A stretch of 64,000 bases of DNA. Source: Alphaproteobacteria bacterium. GTDB lineage: Bacteria; Pseudomonadota; Alphaproteobacteria; UBA9219; RFNS01. Of the stretch, positions 17,801-56,713 are shown one piece after another. Within the stretch, counting starts at the first letter, position 1. Each line of letters begins with the position of its first letter. Both the position numbers and the translations under genes were made by a program. The DNA lies in assembly GCA_037200005.1 (NCBI GenBank), contig JBBCGY010000001.1, positions 42,416 through 106,415 of the forward strand, read 5' to 3'. Below the pieces are notes generated by a model. It was given only the letters and a program-made list of their open reading frames with translations. It ran no database searches and was not told the DNA's origin.

Positions 17801-20202
17801 CGTATGACGTGACCGACCGGATGGGTCTGGTGAAGCGTTTCGGCTACGACAATCTCGACCGGGTAACGCGGGTGGATTACGCCCCCGGCACGGCGGGCAC
17901 GACCTATGAGACGAACACCTATACCAACCTCGACCTGACATCGCACCGCGACCGGCTTGGCCGGGTTAGCACCGATGTTTACACGGCGAACCGGCAGCTG
18001 TGGCTGAGCTTCAATGCTTCGGGAACGCGGCGGGGCTTCACCTATTACCCGAACGGCGCGCTACAAGGCTACTACGACGAGAACGACCATCCTACAATCT
18101 ACGGCATCGACGGCCAGGGACGCGCCAACGCCGTCGTCTATCCCAATGGCAACCAGACGAATTACTACTACGATGATGGCGGGCGGATGCGCACCATTGT
18201 CGATCTCGACGGCTCGAACCAGCGCTGGCGGAACATTAAATATAACGTCGATAATAGCGTCCATATCCGCGACTATACCAACCCGGCAAATCCGTCCGAT
18301 CCCGTGGTTCTGGCGACGACAACCGCGACCTTCACCTACGATCCATGGTTCCCCGGACAAATGACTTCAATGGCCGATGCCAGCGGAACGACCAACTATA
18401 CATACAAAACCGTAGGCACCGTCGGCGCCTTACAACTCGCGACCGAAAATCCGCCGACGGTAAGCGGCGACGCGGATAAAATCACCTACACCTATGACCA
18501 GAAGGGACGGCTCGCCTCGCGCCAGATCGGTATCGGCACGGCGAGCGTGCTGCCGCAGGAAAGCTGGGTGCGCGACACCTATGGCCGCATTAACAGGCAC
18601 ATCATTCCCGACGGCAACCTGTTCTATTACGACTTCAACGGCGCGAGCAATCAGGTGACAATGCGCGCGTTTCGCAATCAGGCGCTGACGGAGATCGACC
18701 CGCTGAATACGCGCACGATGATGAGCTACGACACGGCGGCGAACGACTCGCGGCTGCTGACGATCAACAACCCGCCCTACGACAACAGCGCGCCCGGCGC
18801 GCGGGACTTCACCCTCAATTGGGGATCGTCGCCCGCCAATCCGTACGTTCCGGCGACGATCACCGACTCCGCTGGAGGCCCCGGCGGGGCGTGGGGACAG
18901 CGGGTGTGGACGATGGGCTATGACGCGCGCGACCGGCTGACCTCGGCGGTCGCCGCCGACCGCAGCTATTCGTTTACCCTGGACGCGCCGGGCAACGCGA
19001 CGAGCTTCACCAGCACGCACTATCCGAGCGGCGGGCTGTATAGCTTTAACTCGACCTACAACACGTCGAACCAGATGACGGTGGCGAACGGCAACGCGCT
19101 GATCTACGACCCCTACGGCAACCTCGTCACCCACACGAACTACCGCAGCTTCAAGTACGACGCCGAGAACCGCCTGATCGAGGTCGACTTCCCCGCCGCG
19201 CCCGCCGACAAGGTTGAGATGCAATATGACGGTCTTGGTCGCCGCACGCAGATCAAATCCACCATCGGCGGCGTCGTCACGACGCGGAACCTGCAATGGT
19301 GCGCCCAGACGACCTCGCCGCCGTTCCAGGGCGCGGCGGAAGAGATATGCGTCGAGCGCGACGCATCGGGCGGCATGCAGCGCATGGTCTATCCCGAGGG
19401 CGAATATCGCGCCAACGGCGGCCGGTACTTTTATGAACGCGACCAGACCGGCAACATCCGCGACGTGATGAAGATGGCGGCGGGATTGACGACCGCCGCG
19501 CGCGATAGCTCCTTCAACTACACGCCTTATGGCGGCGTCGACGGCAAAGACGGCACTGCCGAGCCGCTGCAGCAGTTCGCGGGACTGCTGTATGAGAAGA
19601 ACAGCAACCTGTTCCTCTCCCGCACCCGCGCCTATGCCCCATGGATCGGCAGATGGCTCCAGCGCGATCCGATTGGGCAGAATGGGGGGAGTAATGTTTA
19701 TGAGTATGCGGGGGCGAGTCCGATTAACAAGATTGATCCGAGCGGGTTGCAGGGGGTGCGACCTGGGTTAATAGAAACGATGCGACCTACAATAGGAGTG
19801 CCACCAGCAGCGGGGATCAACGAGGGGGCAGGAAATTACGCCGATTATCTTCAAGAAAATGGAGAAATGATGGGTGATCTAGCCACCCTTTATAGGGCCA
19901 CTAGCGCGGCGGTTGCCGGTGCGAGCAACCAATCAATGCGAGAGGATATTGAAAAAGCAAAAGTATGCACATCGTTTGGAAACAGCATGTCGGCGGATCA
20001 GCCGTTATGGTGCGGGCCTGGCGGATGCGCGGATAGCGTCAGGCAGCAGTGGCTGGATGCGACCGGCGGCTTAGTGTATCCACAAATCATCGAGTCTTTC
20101 AAAAAGAGGTTTGAACCGGCTCCCTCGCGGCTTGTGTCGACGCCGATGCGTGGCAATGACTTCGGTAATTCGGTTTTATTCCCTAATGTGGGCCCAGGTT
20201 AG
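14821..20202 (+). CDS. Rhs-family polymorphic toxin (1793 aa): N-terminal HAF repeats, RHS/YD repeats, RHS core, DPxGL cleavage motif, ~150-aa C-terminal toxin domain
   Basis: Repeated NxxGQ(V/I)VG and HAF motifs in the first ~350 aa. Many YDxxGR(L/R) repeats. RHS core YFYERDQTGNIRDVM. IDPSGLQ (PxxxxDPxGL) at ~19740, followed by a unique tail. A lipobox-like VVAC lies near the N-terminus. Confidence 0.9.
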   Translation: MVAPAKKFHEANGELTNEAGATRPPLSRNSLWRTLRPGISVGVSLAAVVACESGEPNASNDNIVSISQAIGSATIYSLPTNVLMPNAINNQNLIVGQGLPSIYDANTGTFSSLEVNQPSGAVTSYAISNAGHVVGNSFNVGPVSNSAFISQGGHLSDLYAGNNNGVTSVAYGVNNYGQVVGTMPVTVNDANNSPHPFTHAFSWQGSVTDLTPNYYGNSAAYGINDAGQIVGTIGTAGVKWQGGSSSTLPSGTSTPAMINNVGQIVGTYSSGGSSHAFLVQSGTLTDLGAIQGSTPVRINNKGQVTGGFYNTGAGQYYPSVWQNGVVVTIPTLSGIPAGWSITSINGINDSGTVVGQGTLSGSSRGFYLTSPQLLNYAIAGKPYDPKANGGEDSASTPTDDLCGTHGMCVPNAQLLSASLNLNDTPIGYQPPKGPPAYIRLTYNHRDSVAPSSTSSHVGPNWTLNVISYIQDDPASPGQSVTRNVAGGGIVDYTFEAGQFNTTTGAFGPEKQTGAILKRTPATGFSASASYELSFPDGAKQIFSYPDGSFNYPRRAFLTDIVDASGQGLHFGYNYLQGTFGAINCTPGCPQLQSVSDANFRATNFVYGDASNVLRVTRINDPFGRHADLAYDGSGRLSSITDVIGIQSSFTYDTTDPTFIKKLTTPYGDSNFVFGQDTATDRRWLTLSDAVGNTEKVEYRGSSASGIAACDKNTSDASCSVSTSVPTGMPNGINNADLDKRNTFVWNKWMYANGYGSDYTQANVTHWLKDGAGNPVGIPESVKPLYESRIWYNYPGQNDPSTPGTLSVPRATGRVITDPLYGQAPQNQVYQSQYNSLGKPTLTVDPYKVSGNNNEGRTTRMTYDASGVDLLTVEQKTGSGTPGTWATIASYVYTDPTEQPTSIHKPIRYTDAAGQTYKFKYNGDGQLIYAANPYNDTTYNEYHPSGKLLRTTMPVPSVNWNTIDYGTDINGAPTGASNSSALRDTAITYDSADRPYDVTDRMGLVKRFGYDNLDRVTRVDYAPGTAGTTYETNTYTNLDLTSHRDRLGRVSTDVYTANRQLWLSFNASGTRRGFTYYPNGALQGYYDENDHPTIYGIDGQGRANAVVYPNGNQTNYYYDDGGRMRTIVDLDGSNQRWRNIKYNVDNSVHIRDYTNPANPSDPVVLATTTATFTYDPWFPGQMTSMADASGTTNYTYKTVGTVGALQLATENPPTVSGDADKITYTYDQKGRLASRQIGIGTASVLPQESWVRDTYGRINRHIIPDGNLFYYDFNGASNQVTMRAFRNQALTEIDPLNTRTMMSYDTAANDSRLLTINNPPYDNSAPGARDFTLNWGSSPANPYVPATITDSAGGPGGAWGQRVWTMGYDARDRLTSAVAADRSYSFTLDAPGNATSFTSTHYPSGGLYSFNSTYNTSNQMTVANGNALIYDPYGNLVTHTNYRSFKYDAENRLIEVDFPAAPADKVEMQYDGLGRRTQIKSTIGGVVTTRNLQWCAQTTSPPFQGAAEEICVERDASGGMQRMVYPEGEYRANGGRYFYERDQTGNIRDVMKMAAGLTTAARDSSFNYTPYGGVDGKDGTAEPLQQFAGLLYEKNSNLFLSRTRAYAPWIGRWLQRDPIGQNGGSNVYEYAGASPINKIDPSGLQGVRPGLIETMRPTIGVPPAAGINEGAGNYADYLQENGEMMGDLATLYRATSAAVAGASNQSMREDIEKAKVCTSFGNSMSADQPLWCGPGGCADSVRQQWLDATGGLVYPQIIESFKKRFEPAPSRLVSTPMRGNDFGNSVLFPNVGPG
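18996..19750. repeat. direct repeat copy 1 (~755 bp, ~98% identical to 21505-22258): rhs core-end segment
   Basis: Near-identical nucleotide and protein sequence (GNATSFTSTHYPSGGLYSF...PINKIDPSGL) in both copies. The antisense ORF-track entries are duplicated too (19140-19385 = 21651-21896). Confidence 0.85.
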
Positions 20203-20207
20203 TCCTA

Positions 20208-21478
20208 TGAAAAAGTTTACTCTATTGCTTGTCGCGCTTTGTAGTCTGACAATGTTACCGGCTCATGCCGCTGACCAAGACTCCAAACCACCCGTCATTG
20301 ATATTCCTGCCACGCGAAAAGAGGCGGAGTCTGGAGATGCTCGGGCTCAATATAATCTGGGCATAGCTTATCTCAACGGTTACGGGGTGAAGAAAAATAA
20401 AGATGAAGCTATTGAATGGATTTACAAAGCAGGGAAGAACAATGATGCCCTCGCAATATATTTCTTGGGCAGCGCATATCATGATGGCGACCTTTTGCCA
20501 CAAGACTACGCCAAGGCTATGAAGTGGTATCACAGGTCCGATGAATTATACGGCAGTCCCCTTGCGCAGAATATGCTTGGCGTGATGCACGAAAACGGTC
20601 AGGGGGCTCCACAGAATTATGAAGAAGCGGCTAGGTGGTATCGCAAAGCTGCCGAGAATATTTACGCACCGGCTCAATCCCATCTTGGATTCCTATACTA
20701 CGCTGGACGCGGCGTTCCTAAGGACGATCAAAAGGCTCTATATTGGCTTAAGAAAGCAGCCATACAAAACGATGCGCCAGCAAAGCTTATGCTAGGCATT
20801 ATGCACTATAAAGGCGAAGGAGTGGAAAAGAATTACGTTAAAGCTGTCAGCTATTTTCGCGAAGCCGCAGACGTCGGAATATCGATAGCTGAACGATATT
20901 TGGGAAATATGTATTACCACGGCGAAGGCGTTTCCAAGGATGAAGCCCAGGCTGTGTCTTGGTGGCGCAAAGCCGCCGAACAAGGGGATAGGGAGTCGGA
21001 AAAGATCATAGGTGGTATGTACTATTATGGCACAGGAGTGTCGAAGGATTTTTCCCAAGCCGTTTTATGGTGGCAAAAAGCTGCGGAAAAGGGTGATGTC
21101 GATGCTCAATGCAACTTGGCGAAAGCTTACTATCATGGAGAAGGTATAGGAAAAGATGAAACTCAAGCTGTGTTATGGTGGCGGAGGGCCGCGGCACAAG
21201 GACATGGAGAATCCCTCCTTTATTTAGGACAAGCGTATTTTAGTAGCATAGGCGTATCGCAAGATGATGTGCAGGCTTATATATGGCTAAGCTTGGCGGC
21301 TACAAGAAATCAGTCGTCAGCGGTTGCAACACTCACGGAACTCGAAAAGTCCATGACGCCGGAACAAATCGCTGAAGCCAGAAAACGCGTGGCAGAATGG
21401 AAACCCAAGCCTGAGCCAAAGCCTGCCCCAATAGGGCCAATACCCGAAATTCTAAAAGAAGTCCGTGAAGATTTATGA
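20208..21478 (+). CDS. Sel1-repeat protein with signal peptide (candidate periplasmic immunity protein for Rhs-CT1)
   Basis: Signal peptide MKKFTLLLVALCSLTMLPAHA. At least 9 Sel1 repeats (AQYNLGIAYLNGYGVKKNKDEAIEWIYKAG...). Sits immediately downstream of the rhs toxin tip. GC ~45% versus ~62% for the rhs body. Confidence 0.8.
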
Positions 21479-22668
21479 TCTCGACTTCGAGGATGCATTT
21501 GGGCAATGCGACGAGCTTCACCAGCACGCACTATCCGAGCGGCGGGCTGTATAGCTTTAACTCGACCTACAACACGTCGAACCAGATGACGGTGGCGAAC
21601 GGCAACGCGCTGATCTACGACCCCTACGGCAACCTCGTCACCCACACGAACTACCGCAGCTTCAAGTACGACGCCGAGAATCGCCTGATCGAGGTCGACT
21701 TCCCCGCCGCGCCCGCCGACAAGGTTGAGATGCAATATGACGGTCTTGGCCGCCGCACGCAGATCAAATCCACCATCGGGGGCGTCGTCACGACGCGGAA
21801 TCTGCAATGGTGCGCCCAGACGACCTCGCCGCCGTTCCAGGGCGCGGCGGAAGAGATATGCGTCGAGCGCGACGCATCGGGCGGCATGCAGCGCATGGTC
21901 TATCCCGAGGGCGAATATCGCGCCAACGGCGACCGGTACTTTTATGAACGCGACCAGACCGGCAACATCCGCGACGTGATGAAGATGGCGGCGGGATTGA
22001 CGACCGCCGCGCGCGACAGCTCCTTCAACTACACGCCTTATGGCGGCGTCGACGGCAGAGACGGCACCGCCGAGCCGCTGCAGCAGTTCGCGGGACTGCT
22101 GTATGAGAAGAACAGCAACCTGTTCCTCTCCCGCACCCGCGCCTACGCCCCATGGATCGGCAGATGGCTCCAGCGCGATCCGATTGGGCAGAATGGCGGC
22201 GCGAATGTTTATGAATATGCGGGGGCGAGTCCGATTAACAAGATTGATCCGAGCGGGCTTCAAAGCATCCAGAATGCGGATGACTGGATAAAACAGAGAA
22301 ATGCCCCTGCTCAGCCGTCAAATAGTATTTGGAGTGAGATCCTAGATAAAATCAGAGAACCTGTGTCTAGAAATGAAGCCATTAGTGAGATTACAAATTT
22401 CCGTCAATCTGGAGAGGCCCAAACTGAAGCACAGATAGCTAGAATGCTCATGGGTTTACCCGTCGAACCTGATTTTTCTGTTGCTATAGGAGGGGCTGAA
22501 GGTGAGCAAGATCTTGGCAGAGCGATTATGTCGGTAGCGCGCGAGATTTTGCGCCGCCCTGCGGAGCAGTCGTGCCCAATAGTTCAGAGAAAAGTCTTCG
22601 GTCAATCCTTGCCACCAAGTGATTTTGGTGACAAGAATCTCCCACTGCCATCTATATTAACCCTTTAA
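21475..22668 (+). CDS. orphan rhs C-terminal cassette: duplicated core-end plus an alternative 136-aa CT toxin domain
   Basis: The first 260 aa match Rhs residues ~1390-1650, including DPSGLQ. A different tail follows. Its start overlaps the Sel1 gene stop (ATGA), and it lacks the N-terminal 1400 aa. Confidence 0.8.
   Translation: MISTSRMHLGNATSFTSTHYPSGGLYSFNSTYNTSNQMTVANGNALIYDPYGNLVTHTNYRSFKYDAENRLIEVDFPAAPADKVEMQYDGLGRRTQIKSTIGGVVTTRNLQWCAQTTSPPFQGAAEEICVERDASGGMQRMVYPEGEYRANGDRYFYERDQTGNIRDVMKMAAGLTTAARDSSFNYTPYGGVDGRDGTAEPLQQFAGLLYEKNSNLFLSRTRAYAPWIGRWLQRDPIGQNGGANVYEYAGASPINKIDPSGLQSIQNADDWIKQRNAPAQPSNSIWSEILDKIREPVSRNEAISEITNFRQSGEAQTEAQIARMLMGLPVEPDFSVAIGGAEGEQDLGRAIMSVAREILRRPAEQSCPIVQRKVFGQSLPPSDFGDKNLPLPSILTL
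21505..22258. repeat. direct repeat copy 2 of the rhs core-end segment
   Basis: See copy 1. The offset between copies is 2509 bp. Confidence 0.85.
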
Positions 22669-27111: not shown

Positions 27112-27187
27112 GACCTTGTAGCTCAGCCGGTAGAGCATCTGACTTTTAATCAGGGGGTCGCGGGTTCGAACCCCGCCGAGGTCACCA
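27112..27187 (+). tRNA. tRNA-Lys (anticodon UUU) with encoded CCA
   Basis: Cloverleaf: acceptor gaccttg/cgaggtc; D-arm gctc-agccggta-gagc; anticodon arm tctga-cTTTTaa-tcagg; T-arm gcggg-ttcgaac-cccgc; discriminator a; CCA. Confidence 0.9.
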
Positions 27188-27189
27188 GC

Positions 27190-27250
27190 TATAAACGGAC
27201 TTTTAAGTCCGTTTATAGCTGGTTATGAAGTTGGGTTCGAACCCGCGACA
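27190..27250. repeat. perfect 16-bp-stem hairpin (agctataaacggactt/aagtccgtttatagct) followed by an inverted 17-nt copy of the tRNA T-arm (gtcgcgggttcgaaccc)
   Basis: The revcomp of 27221-27250 contains gtcgcgggttcgaaccc, identical to tRNA positions 48-64. This is a possible att remnant or degenerate tRNA fragment. Confidence 0.45.
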
Positions 27251-47325: not shown

Positions 47326-48003
47326 TTACCGCAGCATAAACGCCCATTCCAGCGTCACCAGACCGCCCGCCGCCGCATTCTGGCATTCCGTGACCGCCTG
47401 CGTCGGATTAACCGGCAGGCTGGTCCCATTCGCCCACACCGTTCCCGCCGCCGTATAGGCCGTCCCGGCAGGGCCGCCGAATAGAACCGCCCGCAGCATC
47501 ATTTTCTGATCCGGCGCGGAGATGCGCGACGCGAGCGCGATACAAACGTCAACCGGCAAATTGGCATAACGCACGCCAAAACTTGTTTCGCCCGGCGCGG
47601 CGGCGGCGGCCGTATTCAGATCCTTGTCCATCGGCTCGACGACAACCGCTCCCCAATCATTGGCGGGCGGAGTGCCGGGCACGCCGCCGATCATGTCGCT
47701 CGGAAAAGCGCCCTGGCAGCTCAATTTGGCCGTCAAATCCGCAGGATTGCAGCCGCCAATCGGGCTGTTGTCATGATAAATTCCCCGCTGGCTGGTATAA
47801 ATGCCGCGCACATTGGCGACAATTTCGAACAGCTGTTCGCCCGCCTTGTTGATGGAAGTGGAGCGGCTCACCCGGCCCGCCGCGAACATAATCCCGGCGA
47901 CGACCATTCCAGCGACGCCCAGCACGATGGCGGCCTCGACCAAAGAGAAGCCGGAGAATGAGCGGCCCCGCCTTCTGTTTTTTTCTCTCCGGCTAAAATC
48001 CAC
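47326..48003 (-). CDS. type IVb pilin, paralogue 1
   Basis: Long leader ...RGRSFSG|FSLVEAAIVLGVAGMVVAG. Confidence 0.7.
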   Translation of the reverse strand: MDFSRREKNRRRGRSFSGFSLVEAAIVLGVAGMVVAGIMFAAGRVSRSTSINKAGEQLFEIVANVRGIYTSQRGIYHDNSPIGGCNPADLTAKLSCQGAFPSDMIGGVPGTPPANDWGAVVVEPMDKDLNTAAAAAPGETSFGVRYANLPVDVCIALASRISAPDQKMMLRAVLFGGPAGTAYTAAGTVWANGTSLPVNPTQAVTECQNAAAGGLVTLEWAFMLR

Positions 48004-49093
48004 TGCCGCCGCCCTTGCTCGAGTCGCTGATGACCACGGTGATATGCAGGATCGAGCTCATGGCGAAGGCGATGACGGTGCCGACCACGGCGAGGCCGAT
48101 ATTCCGCACCACCACCGACTGCGCCTTAAGCTCGTCGATCTGCTCCCTGATCCATTCCTGGGTCACTTCCTCGATCACCGAGCCGATATCGCCGCGCTCG
48201 GAGAGAATTTCCATGTCGAGCGCGACCTGCGGATCGGGGAAACCGTAATTGCCCTGGCGCAGCGCCTCGCCGAGATTCTTGCCCTGCAGCACCGCTTCGA
48301 CTGCCGACGCGATCCGCTCCTTGATCCAGGGATTGCCCTGCTGTTCCAGGATTTCCAGCGCGCGGCGCAGCGGCACCTGCGCGCCCATGAGCGCCGAAAG
48401 GCCGAGCATGAAGCCGCTGCCCTGCCAGATGCGGAACCACGACCAGGGCGGATATTTATCGAACTTCGCCCGCGTCTTGCCCCTCCAGAACGGCATCGTG
48501 ACCGAAGTGATGACGGCGAGCGTGCCGATCGACAAAAGAATGGCGATGCCCCATTTCATGATGAAATCCGACACGTCGGCGAGCGGCCCGATCGATTCCA
48601 GCACCGCTTTCGGCGCGTTCTTGCGCATATTCTGGATCAGGTTGACGCCGAACATCCACAAGACGCCAGAAATCAGGATGATCATGAAGGCGGGATAGGT
48701 GATCGCCTGCATGACGGCGGTGCGCATTTCCTTGGCGCTCTCGCCCATCATCATGATGGAACGCAGCGACTTCGCCACGGTGCCCGATTCTTCCCCGGCG
48801 CGGAGCATGTATAATTCCGCCGACGGCACCCATCCGGCCATCGCCTGCGAAAGCGAATCTCCCGCCCGGTCGCGCTGCAGCCATTCGCGCAGCGCCATCG
48901 CCGCGGGGCGATTCGGGTATTTGCCCATCTCGCTGGAATTGTACCAAAGCCGCTCCAAGGCGCGCGACAGCGCCTCGTTCATCGCCAGCATGCCCTGAAG
49001 CTTGCGATAGACGCGAAAGCGCATCTTCGTGTTGCTGCGGAATTTCCACATGGCGTAGGAGCGTGAGAACTCTGCGCTATTCATCGCCATACA
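47993..49093 (-). CDS. type IV pilus assembly inner-membrane platform protein (GspF/PilC/R64 PilR-like)
   Basis: GspF-like topology of two repeated domains with three TM helices. The start is set at MAMNSAEF. Confidence 0.75.
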   Translation of the reverse strand, partial: CMAMNSAEFSRSYAMWKFRSNTKMRFRVYRKLQGMLAMNEALSRALERLWYNSSEMGKYPNRPAAMALREWLQRDRAGDSLSQAMAGWVPSAELYMLRAGEESGTVAKSLRSIMMMGESAKEMRTAVMQAITYPAFMIILISGVLWMFGVNLIQNMRKNAPKAVLESIGPLADVSDFIMKWGIAILLSIGTLAVITSVTMPFWRGKTRAKFDKYPPWSWFRIWQGSGFMLGLSALMGAQVPLRRALEILEQQGNPWIKERIASAVEAVLQGKNLGEALRQGNYGFPDPQVALDMEILSERGDIGSVIEEVTQEWIREQIDELKAQSVVVRNIGLAVVGTVIAFAMSSILHITVVISDSSKGGGSGF

Positions 49094-51009
49094 CCGAGGC
49101 GCTGCTCGACTTCGGCGATCTCGCGTTCGCGGGCGAGCGGCCCGACCTCGACTTCGGCGTCGGCGGGAGAAACTTCGCCGCGGCGGATTTTTTCGAGAGC
49201 GTGCCAGGCCATCGTGATGCCATTCAGCCCATGGGGCGAAAGCCAGTATTCCTCGGCCTCGATGATCTTGCCCTCCTGGAGCAGATTCATCAGCTTGATA
49301 TCGGTTTCCGCTACCTCGGCGCAAACTGTGCGCCCGCTGCGCCCCTTGAAGCATTTCGGGCAGCCGTCGGGATTGGCGACGTAAATCTGGCTCATGTCAG
49401 GCTCCTCGATCCGGTCGAGGGCGGGCTGTCCCGGATCGGCCTTCATGCGGCGCGCGATCATCAGCGCGAGGCCGGTCCGCACCCGGCGCGCGAGGTCTTC
49501 GTAATCCGGCCCGAACTGCTTGGGCGCTTCCTTGATCGGAACGCGGCAAGAGGGGCACAGGCCCTTGAGCAGCCTTTGGCAGAACATGCCGCACAGCAGA
49601 TGCGGATCATAAATCAGATAAGGCTCGATGCCGAGATCGAGCAGGCGGCGCGGCACGGCGATCGCCGAATAGACGTGCAGCGTCGTGTAAATCTGCCGCC
49701 CGGAAAGCGCCAGGCGGAAGGCGAATTTGGCGGTCTGGATGTCGCGGATTTCGCCGAGCATGACGATGTCGGGATCGAGGCGCAGGGCGCTGCGCATCAC
49801 TTCCGAAAAGCTTTTCTCGCGCTGCTCTTCCTTGACTGACGCGGACACGCCGATCTGGCTCGCGCCCATCACGCCGCCTTCCGGCGGGTCTTCGATCAGA
49901 TAGCATTTGCGGTCGAAATTGGTTTCCACCATGCGCCGGTTGAGCATCACGCGCAGCGTCGTGGTCTTGCCTTGGTTCACCGGGCCGGAAAATATCCGCA
50001 TGCCGCCGGGCAGGCTGCGCAGGAAGCGCACCGTCTTGAGCTGTTCCTGGGAAAAGCCGATCGAATCGACATCCGCCATGGCGAAATTCTCGCCGAACAG
50101 ATGCGCCGAGTCATATTGCAGGCGCATATTGAGATAGCGCCCCCCGTCCGACAGCGGCACCCACTGGCAGCGCATCGACGGCACGCCGATCGGAAGCTGG
50201 ACGGATTCCTGACCGCCGGTTCCGGCCAGCATCGCCGCCTGCGGCTCGAGCCAGTTGGCGGTCGCGCCCGACTGGCCGATCGAATGCGAATAGACGGCGG
50301 ACAGAACCTGCTCGCCTTCGCGCTGAGTCCAGGTTTCCCACAGGCGCAGCGCGCCATCGACGCGGAACTCCACCTTGGCGCGGCCGCCCGCCGCCTCGAT
50401 GTGAATGTCGTTGGCGCCCATGTCGGCGGCCTGCTGGATCATCTCGACGATCTTGCGCCTGACGGCATTGTCGTCGAGGCGAACCATCGCCGCCTGGCGC
50501 TCGGCATAGGCATAGGCCTGCTGCACGATATTCGGGGTGACGTAATGCGGCTCGTCGACTTTATAGCCTTGCCGCCGCGCCTGCAGCGCCACCGAAGTGA
50601 CGAGCGGCGAATTGCGGTGCGCGGCGCTGACCAGCCACATGCCGTTATCGAACAGCGCGCAGAAATTGCGCGACTCGGCAGTGATTTTGAGCGTGCTGCC
50701 CTCGACGGTCAGCACCAGGCCGGTGAATTTCAGCGCCCCGGACAGCGCCATCGAGCGCTCGTCAACGATCTTGATCTGCTGCTGCGCCGCAATGGCGGTT
50801 TTGGCCGCGTTATCCGCGCCCGAGGACGCCGCCTTGCCCTGCGCGGACGGCGCTTGATCGGGGGATGGCGGGGCTTCCGGCGGAGGGGACGGCGGCGCAA
50901 CGGCTCCCTTGGCCGGCGCGGTCAGCTCTCCGGACTTCGGCGCTGGTTTCGACGCCTCCGGTGCCTTATTGATAAGTTTGCGGGTGCGGTCGGCGAGATC
51001 GGACAGCAT
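49081..51009 (-). CDS. type II/IV secretion ATPase (GspE/PilB/R64 PilQ-like) with A/P-rich N-terminus and C-terminal tetracysteine
   Basis: Walker A GPVNQGKTTT. Asp/His boxes. C-terminal CPSC...CPKC. Confidence 0.8.
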   Translation of the reverse strand: MLSDLADRTRKLINKAPEASKPAPKSGELTAPAKGAVAPPSPPPEAPPSPDQAPSAQGKAASSGADNAAKTAIAAQQQIKIVDERSMALSGALKFTGLVLTVEGSTLKITAESRNFCALFDNGMWLVSAAHRNSPLVTSVALQARRQGYKVDEPHYVTPNIVQQAYAYAERQAAMVRLDDNAVRRKIVEMIQQAADMGANDIHIEAAGGRAKVEFRVDGALRLWETWTQREGEQVLSAVYSHSIGQSGATANWLEPQAAMLAGTGGQESVQLPIGVPSMRCQWVPLSDGGRYLNMRLQYDSAHLFGENFAMADVDSIGFSQEQLKTVRFLRSLPGGMRIFSGPVNQGKTTTLRVMLNRRMVETNFDRKCYLIEDPPEGGVMGASQIGVSASVKEEQREKSFSEVMRSALRLDPDIVMLGEIRDIQTAKFAFRLALSGRQIYTTLHVYSAIAVPRRLLDLGIEPYLIYDPHLLCGMFCQRLLKGLCPSCRVPIKEAPKQFGPDYEDLARRVRTGLALMIARRMKADPGQPALDRIEEPDMSQIYVANPDGCPKCFKGRSGRTVCAEVAETDIKLMNLLQEGKIIEAEEYWLSPHGLNGITMAWHALEKIRRGEVSPADAEVEVGPLAREREIAEVEQRLGVWR

Positions 51010-51015
51010 AATATC

Positions 51016-51855
51016 TCACGGCGCCCCGCGCCCATGGCTTAAAGCGCCGGCATTGTCGATGCGAAGGCTGTGCTCGTTTTTATCGCCCGGAGATTTAAGT
51101 TGAACCGTCGTGGCGTCGATGAGCTGGACTTCGGTGCCATCGGCGAGCTTGTCGCCGGCGCGCACATTGATCGTCTTGCCGTCCTGCGCAGAATCCAGAT
51201 CGGCGCTGTATCTTCCGCCGGCGCCGACGATCTTGTGCACTTCATAATCCGCGGGCGAAACGGCCGATGGCGTCCGGCGCGGCGCGGAAGCCGAGGCAAG
51301 CTCGGTCACCGGCACGGCCAGAGAGGCCTTTTGCATTCCCCTGGGCATTTTCGTGACGCCGGAGGGCAGCATGGCGCCGACTTCGCTCGCCATGTCGTCC
51401 CCGCCCTCGCGCTTGGCGCGAGCTTTTTCGAGATCATGCATTTTCTGCTCGAGTTCCAGCAGAAGATCGAGGCGCGCCAGCGCTGCGCGCGCCTGATTCA
51501 TGTCTTCGAGGCTGAGATCGATTTTTCCCGTCTCGAGCTTTTTCATCACGCTTTTAACCTGATCGGGAATTTCCTTGTCTTCGCCGGTCCCATCAGTCGC
51601 ACTAGCCGAAGCGGCTTTGGTTTCCTCGGTCGTCCCTACTCCCGGGCCGCCGGGAGGATGGGCGAGATTGATTCCGCCGCCGGGCTGTCCCGCCTGCGCG
51701 GGGATCGATGGCGCGGCCGATGATGCGGCGCCCGTCATGGCAGCGGTATGGGCGACGGCGAGATCGGTTACGGTCGTTTGGGCAAAAGCCATGGAAGACG
51801 CGGCGCCGAGGGCCAGCACAAAGGCCGGAAACCAAGATCTAAAGGCAATTCTCAT
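51016..51855 (-). CDS. secreted pilus-assembly-associated protein (R64 PilP-position), coiled-coil
   Basis: RBS GAAGGAG. Signal peptide MRIAFRSWFPAFVLALGAASSMAFA. Confidence 0.45.
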   Translation of the reverse strand: MRIAFRSWFPAFVLALGAASSMAFAQTTVTDLAVAHTAAMTGAASSAAPSIPAQAGQPGGGINLAHPPGGPGVGTTEETKAASASATDGTGEDKEIPDQVKSVMKKLETGKIDLSLEDMNQARAALARLDLLLELEQKMHDLEKARAKREGGDDMASEVGAMLPSGVTKMPRGMQKASLAVPVTELASASAPRRTPSAVSPADYEVHKIVGAGGRYSADLDSAQDGKTINVRAGDKLADGTEVQLIDATTVQLKSPGDKNEHSLRIDNAGALSHGRGAP

Positions 51856-52129
51856 CCTACACTCCTTCGACCAGCCAGGGATCGTCCGATCGGTCAAACT
51901 TCTGATAAAGCCCCCAGGATCGGAGGCCCCATACCTAATCTGGGAAGTCGGTTCATCATCGGCGAATAGGGTTAAGTTCCCGTAAACATAGGCTTTATGA
52001 ACCTCGTGCCATTAACGAATGGTTATCGCCCTGCGGCAAGGCGTCAGTTTTGAAATCGGGCATGGAGGGGGATTGGCCTTCATGTCGGCCTAGACGCGGC
52101 GCGGCGCGGCGGCAGGGCGACAAAAAGCG

Positions 52130-53386
52130 TTATTTTCTGTTTTCGTAGATCACGCCGCTGATCTGCCAGCTTCCGCTCTGCGAGACGATGCTGTTGATGA
52201 TAACGCCGGGAACGCCGCCGAAATATTGCGGCAATTCGCCTGGTAAATCGGTAACCTTCAGCGTGAATCCGCGCTTGATCCAGGGCGTAGGCGGCGGATT
52301 CCAGTCTTCCGGCCGCACATTTTCCGGTTTCGGCGGCGGCGGATCGTCAGGCAGGCGCGAAATCGTGCCGTTCCAGTTCTGCGCCAGATAGCGTTTGGTG
52401 ATTTCCGCCGGATCGATCAAATCCTGGGGGCCGCGATTTTTCAGGCCCTCGATCGGCACGCCGCGCGAAGCGTTCGACCCCGATGGATCGATGGAGGCAT
52501 CGGCAAGGGGCTGAGTGTAGCCGACGATGCGGGTCCATGACAGCGACAGGCCGCCCTTCGCGCAACTTAATGTGCTAAGATTCCATCCCAGCCTCGCCTG
52601 CGGCACCTTGTCCAGCGCGACGCGGCACGCCTCTATCAATTCCAGAGGATGAGGCTCATCCTCCCAGAACCGCTTCGGCGGCGGATACGCGATCTGAATC
52701 GGACCGCCGAGACCCGCCGCTTTCATTTCGATCGCACGCTTCTGGGCCTCGATCCTGATCAATTCCCTTTGCGCTTCCTGCGCTTTTTCTTCCTGGTATT
52801 GGTAATACCAGAATCCCGCGATACCCAATACGACGACGAGCGCCGTGACGGCCACGCCGATAAGGATCGCGCGCGGTATCTTGACCGGCTGCAAGGGGCA
52901 GTCGCCGCGATTTTGCAGCACGAAGGGAAGCGCGACCGTTTCCGAAGCGGGAATCGACCATGCTTCAGGAGCATAGATGCGCTGCAGGCCGCCAAGCGTG
53001 ACTTCCTGGATAAGACGGTCGCGGGCGCTGGCGTCATCGAGATATATCTGGTCACCGTCCGGCGCGATCAAATCGTCGCGCACCACGATGACCACGATGC
53101 CTTCGCTTAACTTGAAGGCGCCCGCCCATGAACCCGGCAGCCGGTTGGCAAGCGACGCGGCCAAGGTCGCCATGCCGAGCTTGTGGCCGGATTGCTGAAG
53201 CCCCAGACCGAACTGGGCGACGCGGCCGCCCTTGACGCCGGGACGCACCGCAAAAAAGTCGGCGTGCTGGCCCGGCTGGCGCGCCGCCTCTTTAGCCGCT
53301 TGCGCGACACGGCCGCTCGGCGAAGGCTGCCAATAGAGGCCGACCGCGTATTTGCGCCGTCCGACTGTCGCGACGCCAGATCCCAT
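52130..53386 (-). CDS. bitopic membrane protein, R64 PilO-like type IVb pilus biogenesis protein
   Basis: Single central TM (ILIGVAVTALVVVLGIAGFW). Position and architecture are as in IncI thin-pilus loci. Confidence 0.5.
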   Translation of the reverse strand: MGSGVATVGRRKYAVGLYWQPSPSGRVAQAAKEAARQPGQHADFFAVRPGVKGGRVAQFGLGLQQSGHKLGMATLAASLANRLPGSWAGAFKLSEGIVVIVVRDDLIAPDGDQIYLDDASARDRLIQEVTLGGLQRIYAPEAWSIPASETVALPFVLQNRGDCPLQPVKIPRAILIGVAVTALVVVLGIAGFWYYQYQEEKAQEAQRELIRIEAQKRAIEMKAAGLGGPIQIAYPPPKRFWEDEPHPLELIEACRVALDKVPQARLGWNLSTLSCAKGGLSLSWTRIVGYTQPLADASIDPSGSNASRGVPIEGLKNRGPQDLIDPAEITKRYLAQNWNGTISRLPDDPPPPKPENVRPEDWNPPPTPWIKRGFTLKVTDLPGELPQYFGGVPGVIINSIVSQSGSWQISGVIYENRK

Positions 53387-53654
53387 TAGGGTCCAACCTT
53401 AATTAGAATGGGGTTTCGCGCAGGCGAAAAAGCCGCCCGGCTACGAAAAGACAGAAGCAGGTATCGGCGACTACCTGCGAGGTCTTTGAGAACGCCGGTC
53501 GGCTTTTTCGCCGCGCCCCTTGGGTATGCAAAAGAAGGCCGATCTGCGTTGTCGGCTTCGCTCGCCGTAGATTGACTACGGCTTCGCTCGCCTCCTAGCA
53601 TCTCAGCCTTCTTTTGCATACGAAACTCCCATTCTAATTAAGGTTGGACCCTAG
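53386..53654. mobile_element. MITE-like ~265-bp element with 33-bp terminal inverted repeats and two nested internal inverted repeats
   Basis: Terminal IRs tagggtccaaccttaattagaatgggg(t)ttcg at 53386-53417 and 53621-53654 (1 mismatch). Nested IRs gcgaaaaagccg/cggctttttcgc and gtatgcaaaagaaggc/gccttcttttgcatac. The element fills the space between the secretin stop and the pilO-like start. Confidence 0.6.
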
Positions 53655-55219
53655 GGCTGCTCCGCCGAGGGAACGTCCAGCTCCTGCGGCGTAATGGCGA
53701 TAAGGAGAAGCTGTTTCGTCTTGGAATTGCCGATGCCGCCGCCGAGGAGATAATTATAGGGATTGATGGTTCCCGAGGCCGCTTGGCTGGTTTGATCCTG
53801 GCCGTAACCGGCAAGCACGAGCGTGGAACCGCTGCGCAGCAGGGATTGCTGCACGAAAACCCGGCTCGTGGTTTCCGGCAGCTGCACGCTGCTGGTCCCG
53901 GAGGTGAAGGCGGTGATTCGGACCAGATCGATCAGGTTCAGCGAATATTGCATGAGCACGCGTCCGTCGGCCAGCAGGCGCGGCGTCAGCTGGATCGAAA
54001 AACCTTCGCGCAGCGTGCCGGGCGTCAGCGTCGTGGTCGTCGTGCCGCTGGTTCCGGTCGTCGTCGTGGAGGACGAAGCCAGATAGGCGATATCGCGTCC
54101 GACCCGGCGCGTAATGGTGCGCCCGTTCAGCGTCGTCATCGGGAATTGCGCGACCCGCACATTATGCGAGATCTTCGATATCGCCCGCAGAACCGAGTCC
54201 GCCGACACATTGGCGTTGTCGATGATGCCGATGGTCAGATTGCTGAAATCCGCCACGTTGGTCGCGAAAGCGGGCGCGGCGACGCCGGCGAAGGTGAAGG
54301 GCTTGATGGTCTTCAGCGCCGCCGTGAGCTGGTTGTTGAAATCGTCCTCGTTATCGATCTCGGCGGTGTAAATTTCGACATTGATGGCAAGCTGGCGGAC
54401 AAGCCGCTTGTTTTCCTCGGCGACATAATGCGCTATGCTCTTCATGATTTCAGGCGTCGTCGTCACGGTGATGGTGCCGACCGCGGGCGAAATCACCGCC
54501 GTGCCGGTGCCGCCGAGAATGGAATTCACGGTATTGCCGATCTCGGCCCACATATCGATATCGGCCTTCATTTCGATTTCTTGCTTCAGGCTGTTCGAGC
54601 CGGCTTCCGTGGGGATGGAATCCTCAAATTTGCCCTTGCCGGCCATGACCTCGACCAGAAATACGCGCGTCTCGTAACGGCTGAAAAGAATCGCGCTGCC
54701 GTCATAGCGCCAGTCGACGCCGAACCGCGAACTGGCGTGATCCAGAAGCCCGGAAAGCGGCCCCTCATAAGCGACGCTCATCGTATCGCCGGCATCGGCC
54801 ACGGGAGCGCCCGCGCCGCGGGCGACGACGGGCACTGCCGCGGAAGCGGAAGGGCCGGCCGGAACGCCGGGTCCCAGACGGACCGGAATGCCGGTTTGGC
54901 TGGAAAGCGTCGAGGCGATATCGCCCAGCGACTGCGGCGTGCGCGCGACGAACGTCACGCCCTTCGCCGTCTCATATTTTTCGGGAAGCGGCAGCCCTCT
55001 ATGCAAGCGCACCGCCTGGCTTCCCACCCAAAGCCGGTCGGTCACGACGAGCGGATTGCTTTTGAAGGGAGGCAGGGGCTGCTGGGCGCGGACGAGATTT
55101 TGTTCGACTTGCTGCGCCTTCTGTTCGATTTCCTCGCGTACCGCGCCCGTATCACAAGCGGCGACGGCACAAACAACCGCTACTAAGAACAGGTTCCGCA
55201 GTTTCATCATTCTTTCCAT
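53651..55219 (-). CDS. lipoprotein secretin of type IVb pilus (R64 PilN / TcpC-like)
   Basis: Lipobox LVAVVCAVAAC. C-terminal secretin-like region (STLVLAGYGQD...LLGGGIGNSKTKQLLLIAITPQEL). Confidence 0.6.
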   Translation of the reverse strand: MERMMKLRNLFLVAVVCAVAACDTGAVREEIEQKAQQVEQNLVRAQQPLPPFKSNPLVVTDRLWVGSQAVRLHRGLPLPEKYETAKGVTFVARTPQSLGDIASTLSSQTGIPVRLGPGVPAGPSASAAVPVVARGAGAPVADAGDTMSVAYEGPLSGLLDHASSRFGVDWRYDGSAILFSRYETRVFLVEVMAGKGKFEDSIPTEAGSNSLKQEIEMKADIDMWAEIGNTVNSILGGTGTAVISPAVGTITVTTTPEIMKSIAHYVAEENKRLVRQLAINVEIYTAEIDNEDDFNNQLTAALKTIKPFTFAGVAAPAFATNVADFSNLTIGIIDNANVSADSVLRAISKISHNVRVAQFPMTTLNGRTITRRVGRDIAYLASSSTTTTGTSGTTTTTLTPGTLREGFSIQLTPRLLADGRVLMQYSLNLIDLVRITAFTSGTSSVQLPETTSRVFVQQSLLRSGSTLVLAGYGQDQTSQAASGTINPYNYLLGGGIGNSKTKQLLLIAITPQELDVPSAEQP

Positions 55220-55270: not shown

Positions 55271-56713
55271 TCATTCTCCGCCGCTGTTGCCGCGCGTTTC
55301 GATCACCAGAATTCTCTGCCCCGCGGTCGGATTATCATGCAAGCGCCCGAAAGGCTGCGGCTTGGCGTCGACAAAACCGCTAAGCAGATTGCGCACGGCG
55401 TCTTCGAACGAGCCGGAGAAATTCACGCTGGCCTGAATCGGATAGTCATATTCGGTCGCCCATACCAGTTCGACATTGGCGCGCTCGCTCCACTTTTTGA
55501 TGACGGCGCGCAGCTGATCACCCGGTTCGGCTTTCCACGCTTCCGCCGGAGCGGCTTGCGTCGCAGGCGTGAGGGGACTCGGTGTCACGACGGAGCCCGT
55601 TACCGGCGGCGCATCGGACGGCGGCGCGGCGGTAATAGGCTGAACCGCATCCACCGCATCTTTCGCGGGAGGCACGGAAGCCGGCGCGGGCTCAACCGGC
55701 GGCAAGGGTGGCGGGGCATCGGCGGCAAGCGCGGGCGCGGCGGCCGCGGCAATCATCGAATCATCCACGACCGGCGGCAGCGCGGCAGCCGTAGCCGGCG
55801 TTTCCAGCGGCGGCAGAGGCACCATCATGGCCTCGGGGGGAGCACCCGCCACAGGCGCGGGCATATCGGAGCCGGCCGGCGTTGCGGCAGCGGCCGCCGA
55901 AGGAACAGGCGGCGCCTCGGTGGGCAACTCGGCTACCGGCAAAGGCGCGGGAACTTCCAGCGGAGCGGCGGACGCTGCATGCACCCCTGTTTTACCGCCC
56001 AGACCCGCGCGGGCAATTTTGACGATTTTACCCTCTTCCTGGGCCGACAGCCCCGCGCCCGTCAGAGCATCATTCAGCACCGTCCGCCAAGGCTTGCCGC
56101 CCTGCCAGTCGACCGACGTGGAATTGTCTATTCCCTGCTCCAGCGCAAAACCGTAATCCGGCGGCAAAATCTGTTTGAGCGCGACCGTAAGCGGAATCTT
56201 CTTGCCAAATCCCACAATGGCCGGCCCTTGGTCAACCGGAAGAGGAGGCGGGACATCGGCGGCAAGCGTGGGCGCCAATTCCGGCGGCGGGACGGATAGC
56301 GGCGCAGACGGCTCTATCGGCGACGGCTCTATCGGCGGCAAGGGCACCGGAGAAGCAACGGCAGCCATAGGCTCAAGCGGCAATGGCTCCATCGGCGCCA
56401 AGGCTTGCGGCGACGATGCCACAGGAGAGGCGGCCGCCGGGGGGCTTACTTCCGGCAATTGCATGGGAGCGGGCAAAGCGGCCTGATCGGCAGGCGCTGG
56501 CGCAAGCGGAACTGCCGGCACATCCTCGACAGGAGCGGGAACGGGCGCGGGTGCAAGCGGAACCGCGGCAGGAGCCTCTTCAAGCGGCGTGACCCACTGA
56601 AACCCGGCCTGGGCGGTGCCGCACATAAGCGTAACGCCGATGATGCCTAATGCGAGACTGAGCAAGAGACGATGTTGTCGGGCAAACCAGGCCATGAGCG
56701 AACACTTCCGCAT
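55271..56713 (-). CDS. TcpQ-domain protein (R64 PilL-like), Pro/Ala-rich
   Basis: Signal peptide, long PAPxP low-complexity region and C-terminal TcpQ-like domain (WKAEPGDQLRAVIKKWSERANVELVW). Confidence 0.55.
   Translation of the reverse strand: MRKCSLMAWFARQHRLLLSLALGIIGVTLMCGTAQAGFQWVTPLEEAPAAVPLAPAPVPAPVEDVPAVPLAPAPADQAALPAPMQLPEVSPPAAASPVASSPQALAPMEPLPLEPMAAVASPVPLPPIEPSPIEPSAPLSVPPPELAPTLAADVPPPLPVDQGPAIVGFGKKIPLTVALKQILPPDYGFALEQGIDNSTSVDWQGGKPWRTVLNDALTGAGLSAQEEGKIVKIARAGLGGKTGVHAASAAPLEVPAPLPVAELPTEAPPVPSAAAAATPAGSDMPAPVAGAPPEAMMVPLPPLETPATAAALPPVVDDSMIAAAAAPALAADAPPPLPPVEPAPASVPPAKDAVDAVQPITAAPPSDAPPVTGSVVTPSPLTPATQAAPAEAWKAEPGDQLRAVIKKWSERANVELVWATEYDYPIQASVNFSGSFEDAVRNLLSGFVDAKPQPFGRLHDNPTAGQRILVIETRGNSGGE

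Follow-up and report, generated by a model that had tools for sequence, protein, structure and literature searches.

The Correia elements of Neisseria (CREE/NEMIS) insert at a TA target, and RNase III binds or cleaves the hairpin that their inverted repeats form in mRNA, which affects expression (PMC2649163). They are often co-transcribed with neighboring genes (PMC2649163; PMC2229807) and consist of a single hairpin of 104-157 bp with conserved ends, which is present in >100 copies per genome and in some cases carries IHF sites and promoters. The RUP elements of Streptococcus pneumoniae, which are linked to IS630-Spn1 (PMC2229807), are 107 bp long and have ends that match those of IS630-Spn1, so that their transposase is identified. 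ERIC repeats are likewise co-transcribed and alter mRNA stability (PMC2229807). Here, we describe a noncoding element of 263 bp in 64,000 nucleotides (nt) of DNA from an uncultured alphaproteobacterium; this whole stretch is referred to as the window, and coordinates are given in its numbering. The element lies between the genes for a secretin and for PilO2 in a type IVb pilus (pil) operon, and we consider it likely to be a nonautonomous DNA transposon of the type known as miniature inverted-repeat transposable element (MITE), inserted in the TA of the TAATG overlap of the two genes and belonging to a small, apparently undescribed family with three members known so far. As in bacterial MITEs generally, terminal inverted repeats, of about 31 nt here, bound the element and its two relatives, the insert comes with a TA duplication and has an empty site in related loci, and its 263 bp hold neither a transposase nor any other gene. 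The 2-bp TA duplication is, in addition, that of MITEs derived from IS630/Tc1-mariner elements.

The junction was compared with 46 orthologous loci that contain both secretin and pilO2, with this genome kept separate. Five of the loci were obtained by exact-protein look-ups of the closest PilO2 relatives (68-71% identity), and a scan of JGI metagenomes supplied the rest. In 43 of the 46 loci, secretin stop and pilO2 start are separated by a gap of -4 to +5 nt: it is -1 nt (TAATG or TGATG) in 24, -4 nt in eight, +1 nt in six, +3 nt in four, and +5 nt in one. The remaining three have gaps of +15, +34, and +80 nt, and a gap of +264 nt is seen in this genome alone; in its closest relatives, the gap is +1 or -1. 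Nothing resembling the element is present in any of the 46 loci. We note that two of the longer spacers (L015 1427-1460, 34 nt; L058 4093-4172, 80 nt) hold short hairpins that are unrelated to the element; the third is the 15-nt spacer L018 286-300. The initial annotation of this DNA, which had called for just this comparison, placed a MITE-like element exactly between the two genes and proposed that it could be a miniature transposable element, an mRNA-processing or attenuation structure that decouples the two genes, or a small structured RNA; a structured intergenic regulator was to be preferred if a single copy were conserved in all related pil loci. The empty sites, together with the TA duplication and the homologues in unrelated contexts described below, support the transposable element, and a regulator conserved in related pil loci is refuted by the absence of the element from all 46 loci.

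The nearest empty site, in locus L008, reads GGAGCAGCCTTAATGGGT with the core CCTTAATGGG, that is, GGAGCAGCC-T-TA-ATGGGT. The junction in the window reads GGAGCAGCCC[TA-GGGTCC...GGACCC-TA]ATGGGA, that is, GGAGCAGCC-C-[TA GGGTCC...GGACCC TA]-ATGGGA. Taking out 263 bp and one TA gives back the TAATG overlap, with CCC-TA-ATG as the reconstructed ancestral junction. The element is a precise insertion, with TA target-site duplication, in the TA common to the secretin stop and the pilO2 start. Because the first base of the element is G, TA and G make a TAG stop and the C-terminus of the secretin (...AEQP) is kept, while the second TA adjoins and keeps the pilO2 ATG; both proteins are therefore unchanged, and the repeats do abut stop and start as had been annotated. 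Every ORF (open reading frame) of the pil operon is intact and can be aligned with its orthologues over the full length, and the insertion is therefore tolerated.

The terminal arms (53387-53412 and 53628-53653) are complementary over 26 nt at 100%, with the sequence TAGGGTCCAACCTTAATTAGAATGGG at 53387-53412. This 26-mer is found at these two sites only within the window, with 0 expected from 100 shuffles. When one indel or bulge is allowed, the inverted repeat reaches 32/33 nt (97%), and the 33-bp terminal repeats of the initial annotation hold in this sense, although their perfect part is 26 nt long. The interior had been described as two nested inverted repeats of 16 and 12 bp in a single hairpin of ~130 bp, and here our results differ: the internal repeats measure 24 nt at 88% (arm 1) and 19 nt at 95% (arm 2), they stand side by side, and the predicted fold is a Y-shaped three-way junction with a closing stem of ~33 bp and two arms of ~45-50 bp (Table 1). 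RNA of the minus strand, sense with respect to the pil operon, has a folding energy of -176.7 kcal/mol (z = -16.2 vs shuffles), and the value for the plus-strand RNA is -164.8 kcal/mol (z = -13.7). A GTAG...CTAC mini-hairpin is present in the apex of arm 1. The Y shape is unusual, as are the size, which is near the upper limit for bacterial MITEs, and an inverted pattern of conservation, in which the loops are conserved and the stems drift but are compensated.

The other members of the family came to light when 1.84 billion representative proteins were searched exhaustively, a 77-amino acid (aa) ORF of the insert (53386-53619) serving as the query. Two short ORFs matched it at 49-50% identity, and both lie inside homologous DNA elements, L059 and L060 (Table 1). 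The neighborhood of L060 contains atpH, osmC, dnaB, rmuC, and glmU-type genes. Including the flanking TAs, the three members are 267, 268, and 270 nt long; all three have the ends TA-GGGT ... ACCC-TA, a bulge of a single base in the 5' arm (position 27), and the same predicted Y-shaped fold. Their overall identity is 64-67%, and it is unevenly spread. The six terminal bases are identical in all pairwise comparisons (100%), the arm 1 apex (ATGCWAGGARRCGAGCGMAGSCGTAGYCAHTCTACGGCRAGCGAAG) is 79-89% identical, and the junction (CCCA(A)GGGGCGCGGCGAAAA) is 80-100% identical, whereas positions 7-26 of the inverted repeat are only 30-45% identical. Yet the diverged arms stay complementary within each member. 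In an alignment (A5) built on the pil-operon sense strand (minus) of the insert, 95.7% of the cells of the consensus structure are standard pairs, compared with 34-43% when the partners are slid by 1-3 columns, and 40 of the 101 pairs have changed on both sides, in both internal arms as well; none of 500 shuffles equals these values. Drawn from three sequences, this covariation is indicative, rather than conclusive, of a maintained fold.

These data bear on a different reading, in which the insert would be a mobile structured element of a new class whose Y structure and loop and junction motifs, and not the sequence of its inverted repeats, are conserved and functional. It could be a mobile noncoding RNA module, such as a processing site or insulator that keeps the neighboring genes coupled, or a DNA element with an enzyme that reads structure. 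The conserved loops and junction, set against stem interiors that drift and remain paired, speak for it, as do the double changes in internal arms that a transposase would not need, the conserved length and position-27 bulge, and the orientation relative to the upstream gene that is shared by both members of known context. On the other hand, there are only three sequences. The sense and antisense fold energies (-171.6/-160.5 for the window, -146.8/-145.4 for L059, and -151.9/-158.6 for L060) reveal no strand asymmetry across the three members, and G.U vs A.C mismatches, at 7 vs 3, do not differ significantly. Since no preference for either RNA strand is seen, the palindromy could be kept at the level of DNA, for example by conversion between arms. 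Moreover, no Rfam match and no conserved promoter was found. We regard a new class as unlikely, if short of negligible. The same holds for its fuller version, a doubtful one in our view, in which an undescribed class of mobile Y-shaped elements of ~268 nt has its fold and motifs under selection while its stems drift as compensating pairs. If it were true, this would be a module in a stop/start overlap whose closing stem juxtaposes the stop and the start, and translational coupling would survive a 265-nt insertion.

Several observations weigh against a MITE as well. The near-randomized interiors of the repeats, at the identities given above, and the conserved loops and junction are atypical of a MITE, and recognition of structure or internal sites, or selection on them, fits this pattern better than a transposase that reads the inverted repeats. 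Multiple copies are part of the usual definition of a MITE, and only one copy is present in the 83 kb of the source genome that was scanned (the window plus ~10 kb on each side, in a contig of 1.83 Mb). Exact 20-22-mers of the repeat are absent from 185,579 GTDB species genomes, JGI metagenomes, and IMG/VR, except for one GTDB match, within a coding region of a Berkelbacteria metagenome-assembled genome, which we attribute to chance. A blastn search with the element found no similarity among the PLSDB plasmids. No transposase with matching ends was found, and the genes called in the 83 kb include no transposase domain. Formally, a duplication of CTA, CCTA, or CCCTA together with a shortened right end is also compatible with the sequence, since the CCC at the end of the left flank mirrors the GGG of the element; the longest symmetric ends are obtained with TA as the duplication. 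Finally, the functional consequences discussed below are all predictions from folding.

Neither blastn (word size 7) nor nhmmer nor a covariance model (R1) built on the same strand as the alignment found a further copy in the window, an additional 20 kb of flanking sequence, or 47 related loci (567 kb). The L059 and L060 elements gave only noise against PLSDB at E <= 10, and the conserved core motifs had no matches in IMG/VR. With R1, L008 6149-6204 scored 29 bits; this is a 25-bp perfect hairpin (GCGTGATTCACGCCTCAGCTTGAAGC...) between the genes of a TraJ-like ATPase and IcmT in a related transfer locus, unrelated in sequence, devoid of the TA-GGGT ends, and caught on structure alone. The pil operon of the window also has a second uncoupling, in that pilO2 and pilP are 274 nt apart (51856-52129), while the start codon (ATG) of the pilP-like gene is found 17 nt within the pilO2 3' end in orthologues. 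The ~30-nt overlap segment survives here as two diverged copies, at the pilO2 end (52131-52170) and just before the pilP ATG (51845-51876). This spacer is of lower G+C content, lacks terminal repeats, and has no significant fold (z = -1.06), and we rejected it as a second copy of the element. As to L059, its contig amounts to almost exactly one element, as dispersed repeats give in short-read assembly, which is a hint that it is a repeat.

If the insert is a MITE, it would have been mobilized by a TA-duplicating DDE transposase supplied in trans. Among such enzymes, the TA duplication suggests one of the IS630/Tc1-mariner type, but by itself cannot separate IS630 from other groups that duplicate TA. 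Other candidates are the IS427 and ISL2 groups of the IS5 family, which duplicate TA and are common in Alphaproteobacteria.

Compared with the systems introduced above, the element shares with Correia elements its lack of coding capacity, bounding inverted repeats of ~24-26 nt, and insertion at TA. It is larger, at 263 bp, and Y-shaped, its ends diverge among members, and RNase III cleavage is predicted only. We rejected identity with Correia elements on size, shape, and host (an alphaproteobacterium); the two are set apart here by description, not by a comparison of the ends with the Correia consensus. With RUP and other IS630-derived MITEs, it shares the TA duplication, terminal inverted repeats, absence of coding sequence, and presumed mobilization in trans (PMC2229807), although no partner insertion sequence was found here. 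The CIR repeats of Caulobacter and Brucella also have alphaproteobacterial hosts, and their predicted RNA, like that of our element, has two long inverted-repeat arms and a linker; neither are they A+T-rich (PMC2229807). CIR repeats have conserved GANTC (CcrM) sites at the loop and no closing stem made from their own ends, while members of the present family are closed by a 33-bp stem and flanked by TA. GANTC is lacking from the window element and from L059 and is confined to stems in L060, and on these grounds, identity with CIR was rejected. The ERIC repeats (ERIC/IRU) of enterobacteria are imperfect palindromes between co-transcribed genes, as is this element, but they are ~127-bp single stem-loops with very short inverted repeats in unrelated hosts. 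A REPIN, or doublet of RAYT-mobilized REP sequences, combines two conserved inverted REP arms with a loop that varies, and it lacks a TA duplication; our element has variable arms, conserved loops, and a duplicated TA, so this assignment was rejected too, the GTAG...CTAC mini-hairpin being the only resemblance. A scan of the window with Rfam at gathering thresholds returned tRNA only, and a relaxed scan of 53250-53800 returned noise (best match mir-3926, 26 bits vs a threshold of 82).

The ORF at 53386-53619 is spurious, as had been suspected at first annotation. It has no Pfam match, is missing from the genes annotated in the source record, and found no homologue in a word-indexed search of 5.8 billion proteins; the same search found none for a 55-aa ORF on the other strand. 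That either of them is a small protein gene, we consider most improbable. In favor of it, all three members have an open frame of 66-77 codons that begins with a conserved ATGCWAGG. Against this, one-nucleotide indels place the conserved GGGGCGCGGCGAAAA block in different frames in the window and in L059, the ORF ends vary by member (inside the repeat, at the TA, or past the element), and substitutions follow base pairs rather than codons. The exhaustive protein search also matched two long repeat proteins (P0121 and P0122), of which P0121 was rejected as a relative since it matched only via a short KDLAGK-type motif. A further match of this search was in a JGI contig, L061 (811-1121), which has three tandem 96-nt repeats inside a 144-aa ORF (P0123), whose translation weakly resembles the junction region of the element (ADRP.F...RGA..KPT); it does not have the inverted-repeat architecture and was rejected as a family member, and the resemblance may be due to chance.

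No convincing sense-strand promoter is present in the element; the sole promoter-like site reads in the antisense direction and has no conserved counterpart in L059 or L060. Among terminator-like sites, defined as a G+C-rich stem followed by a U run, there is one weak candidate (53478-53457), compared with 1.2 expected in shuffles. Because it contains neither a convincing promoter nor a strong terminator, the element is most likely transcribed within the operon mRNA. The high stability of the RNA and the weak terminator-like hairpin would suit a cis-regulatory RNA that evolved in place at this locus, such as an attenuator or processing site that sets the PilN:PilO2 ratio. We find this very unlikely, as the insert is missing from 46 of 46 orthologous junctions, has a TA duplication at a reconstructable empty site, and has homologues in unrelated contexts, and the terminator-like site is no better than chance.

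Taking the element as a MITE that would be co-transcribed with the operon, its insertion would break the direct stop-start coupling of secretin and pilO2. Orthologues have a conserved GGAG, a Shine-Dalgarno-like motif, in the last codons of the secretin, ~8 nt before the pilO2 ATG. Here, the GGAG is ~273 nt upstream of this ATG in linear distance, yet it precedes the base of the closing stem by 6 nt, and the pilO2 AUG directly follows the stem. The 16 nt ahead of the ATG would be locked in the 33-bp stem: in the predicted ensemble, the probability of being unpaired is <= 0.01 at positions -16 to -3 of pilO2 and 0.01 at -2, compared with values up to 0.87 in the reconstructed ancestral junction. 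Three mutually compatible outcomes can be envisaged. PilO2 translation may be lowered and uncoupled. Alternatively, a ribosome that reaches the TAG may open the base of the stem and free precisely the 14 nt that precede the pilO2 AUG, so that coupling is retained; in a crude model of this unmasking, the freed strand partly re-pairs, and the mean probability of being unpaired rises only from 0.15 to 0.33. Lastly, the stem may bridge GGAG and AUG and so bring the ribosome-binding site together, in analogy to genes 25 and 38 of T4, where a hairpin shortens the distance between the Shine-Dalgarno sequence and AUG (PMC3014915). This analogy is functional, namely, that a stable structure brings Shine-Dalgarno motif and start codon to a working distance; the T4 hairpins span 22-27 nt, compared with 267 nt here, where the arrangement would have arisen by transposition. 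The 26-bp perfect duplex is also a likely RNase III substrate, and the operon transcript would then be cut between the two genes; on the strength of the modeled fold, we consider processing at the closing stem probable.

The source sample is a PacBio HiFi co-assembly of deadwood metagenomes (JBBCBH; PMC11613949), and the window belongs to contig JBBCBH010010965.1. The element has an identical sequence in a separate Logan assembly of SRR28211700, one of the four read sets, and because of this, an assembly artefact is very unlikely. Indel-type errors do seem to exist elsewhere in the source contig: hsdR (type I restriction subunit), just beyond the low-coordinate end of the window, is broken up into three ORFs in the NCBI HiFi contig (L010 17413-20589) and is one intact 1058-aa ORF in the Logan single-run assembly (L011 8855-12031), a discrepancy that points to indel errors or to strain variation within the co-assembly. 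For the element itself, an artefact such as a palindromic chimera has next to nothing to recommend it, given the identical second assembly, the same architecture in two unrelated data sets, and intact flanking ORFs on both sides.

The coordinates of the element, its parts, its relatives, and the neighboring genes are collected in Table 1. A bundlin-like pilin gene belongs to the same minus-strand pilus set, and homologues of DotD, TraI, a TraJ-like ATPase, and IcmT lie upstream of the pilus genes. The locus is an R64/IncI-type thin-pilus (type IVb) operon adjoining a Dot/Icm-like transfer system. The product name given by NCBI is 'type 4b pilus protein PilO2', Alphaproteobacteria bacterium.

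Table 1. Positions of the element, its predicted parts, the surrounding pil genes, and the two further family members (window numbering, except for L059 and L060, which are numbered within their own contigs)
Feature	Coordinates	Strand	Remarks
Whole insert with both TA copies, 267 nt	53387..53653	-	Repeat and fold analysis; missing from orthologous junctions
Element proper, 263 bp	53389-53651	-	Given strand is the sense strand of the pil operon
TA copy, secretin side	53652..53653	.	With the first base of the element (53651) forms the secretin stop TAG (53651-53653, minus)
TA copy, pilO2 side	53387..53388	.	Immediately 5' of the pilO2 ATG (53384-53386, minus); second half of the duplication
5' arm of terminal inverted repeat, mRNA sense, GGGTCCAACCTTAATTAGAATGGGAGTTTCG	53621..53651	-	One-nt bulge at position 27
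3' arm of terminal inverted repeat	53389..53418	-	Pairs with 5' arm; covers -16 to -2 of pilO2
Arm 1 of the Y (first in mRNA order)	53524..53621	-	Stem 53524-53547 / 53598-53621
Arm 1 apex	~53545-53601	-	Best-conserved block of the family
Junction block joining both arms, CCCAAGGGGCGCGGCGAAAA	53505..53524	-	Conserved among members
Arm 2 of the Y, imperfect palindrome of ~99 nt	53418..53516	-	Core arms 53423-53441 / 53494-53512
Arm 2 tip, weak terminator-like hairpin, 7-bp stem, 8-nt loop, tail TTCTGTCTTT	53457..53478	-	Not significant alone
GGAG Shine-Dalgarno-like motif	53660..53663	-	In the 3' end of the secretin gene
Secretin of type IVb pilus, PilN-like, 522 aa	53651..55219	-	Pfam Secretin; C-terminal length as in orthologues (...AEQP*)
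PilO2, type IVb pilus protein, 418 aa	52130..53386	-	Pfam PAP_PilO; full length, start as in orthologues
TcpQ-like gene	55271-56713	-	Pfam TcpQ
PilP-like protein	51016-51855	-	
T2SSE ATPase	49081-51009	-	Pfam T2SSE
T2SSF protein	47993-49354	-	Pfam T2SSF
Family member L059	9-276		Nearly all of a stand-alone 282-nt contig, metagenome assembly GCA_024510725.1
Family member L060	256-525		25-kb Logan contig, between convergent chromosomal genes

Two other features of the window, remote from the pil operon, were observed. A 758-bp direct repeat with 98% identity (18990-19746 / 21501-22257) sits in the 3' part of a gene for a 1793-aa Rhs-repeat protein (14821-20202) and again in a downstream Rhs fragment of 397 aa (21475-22668), the two being separated by a Sel1-repeat gene; the arrangement resembles an Rhs toxin locus that has an orphan core/tip cassette. 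The gene for tRNA-Lys(TTT) occupies 27112-27187, and next to it come a perfect hairpin (~27189-27224) and then an inverted partial copy of the T-arm and 3' end of the tRNA, GGGTTCGAACCCGCGAC, at 27232-27249; these make up a 93-nt palindrome within the 27112-27249 region, which may be an integration-site remnant.

Our results highlight a natural case in which a TA-targeting element, by inserting in the TA shared by a stop and a start codon, leaves both proteins intact, and they show how a junction of closely coupled operon genes can accommodate mobile DNA. Metatranscriptomes of the same deadwood samples exist, and the predicted RNA processing is directly testable in them. Conserved loops and covarying stems among copies that are ~65% identical would, if upheld in more copies, suggest recognition or function of the structure, and such a structure-based pattern would concern both the mobilization of MITEs and research on structured RNA. 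An insertion of this kind could also shift the ratio between two proteins that assemble the pilus of a conjugative-type system.

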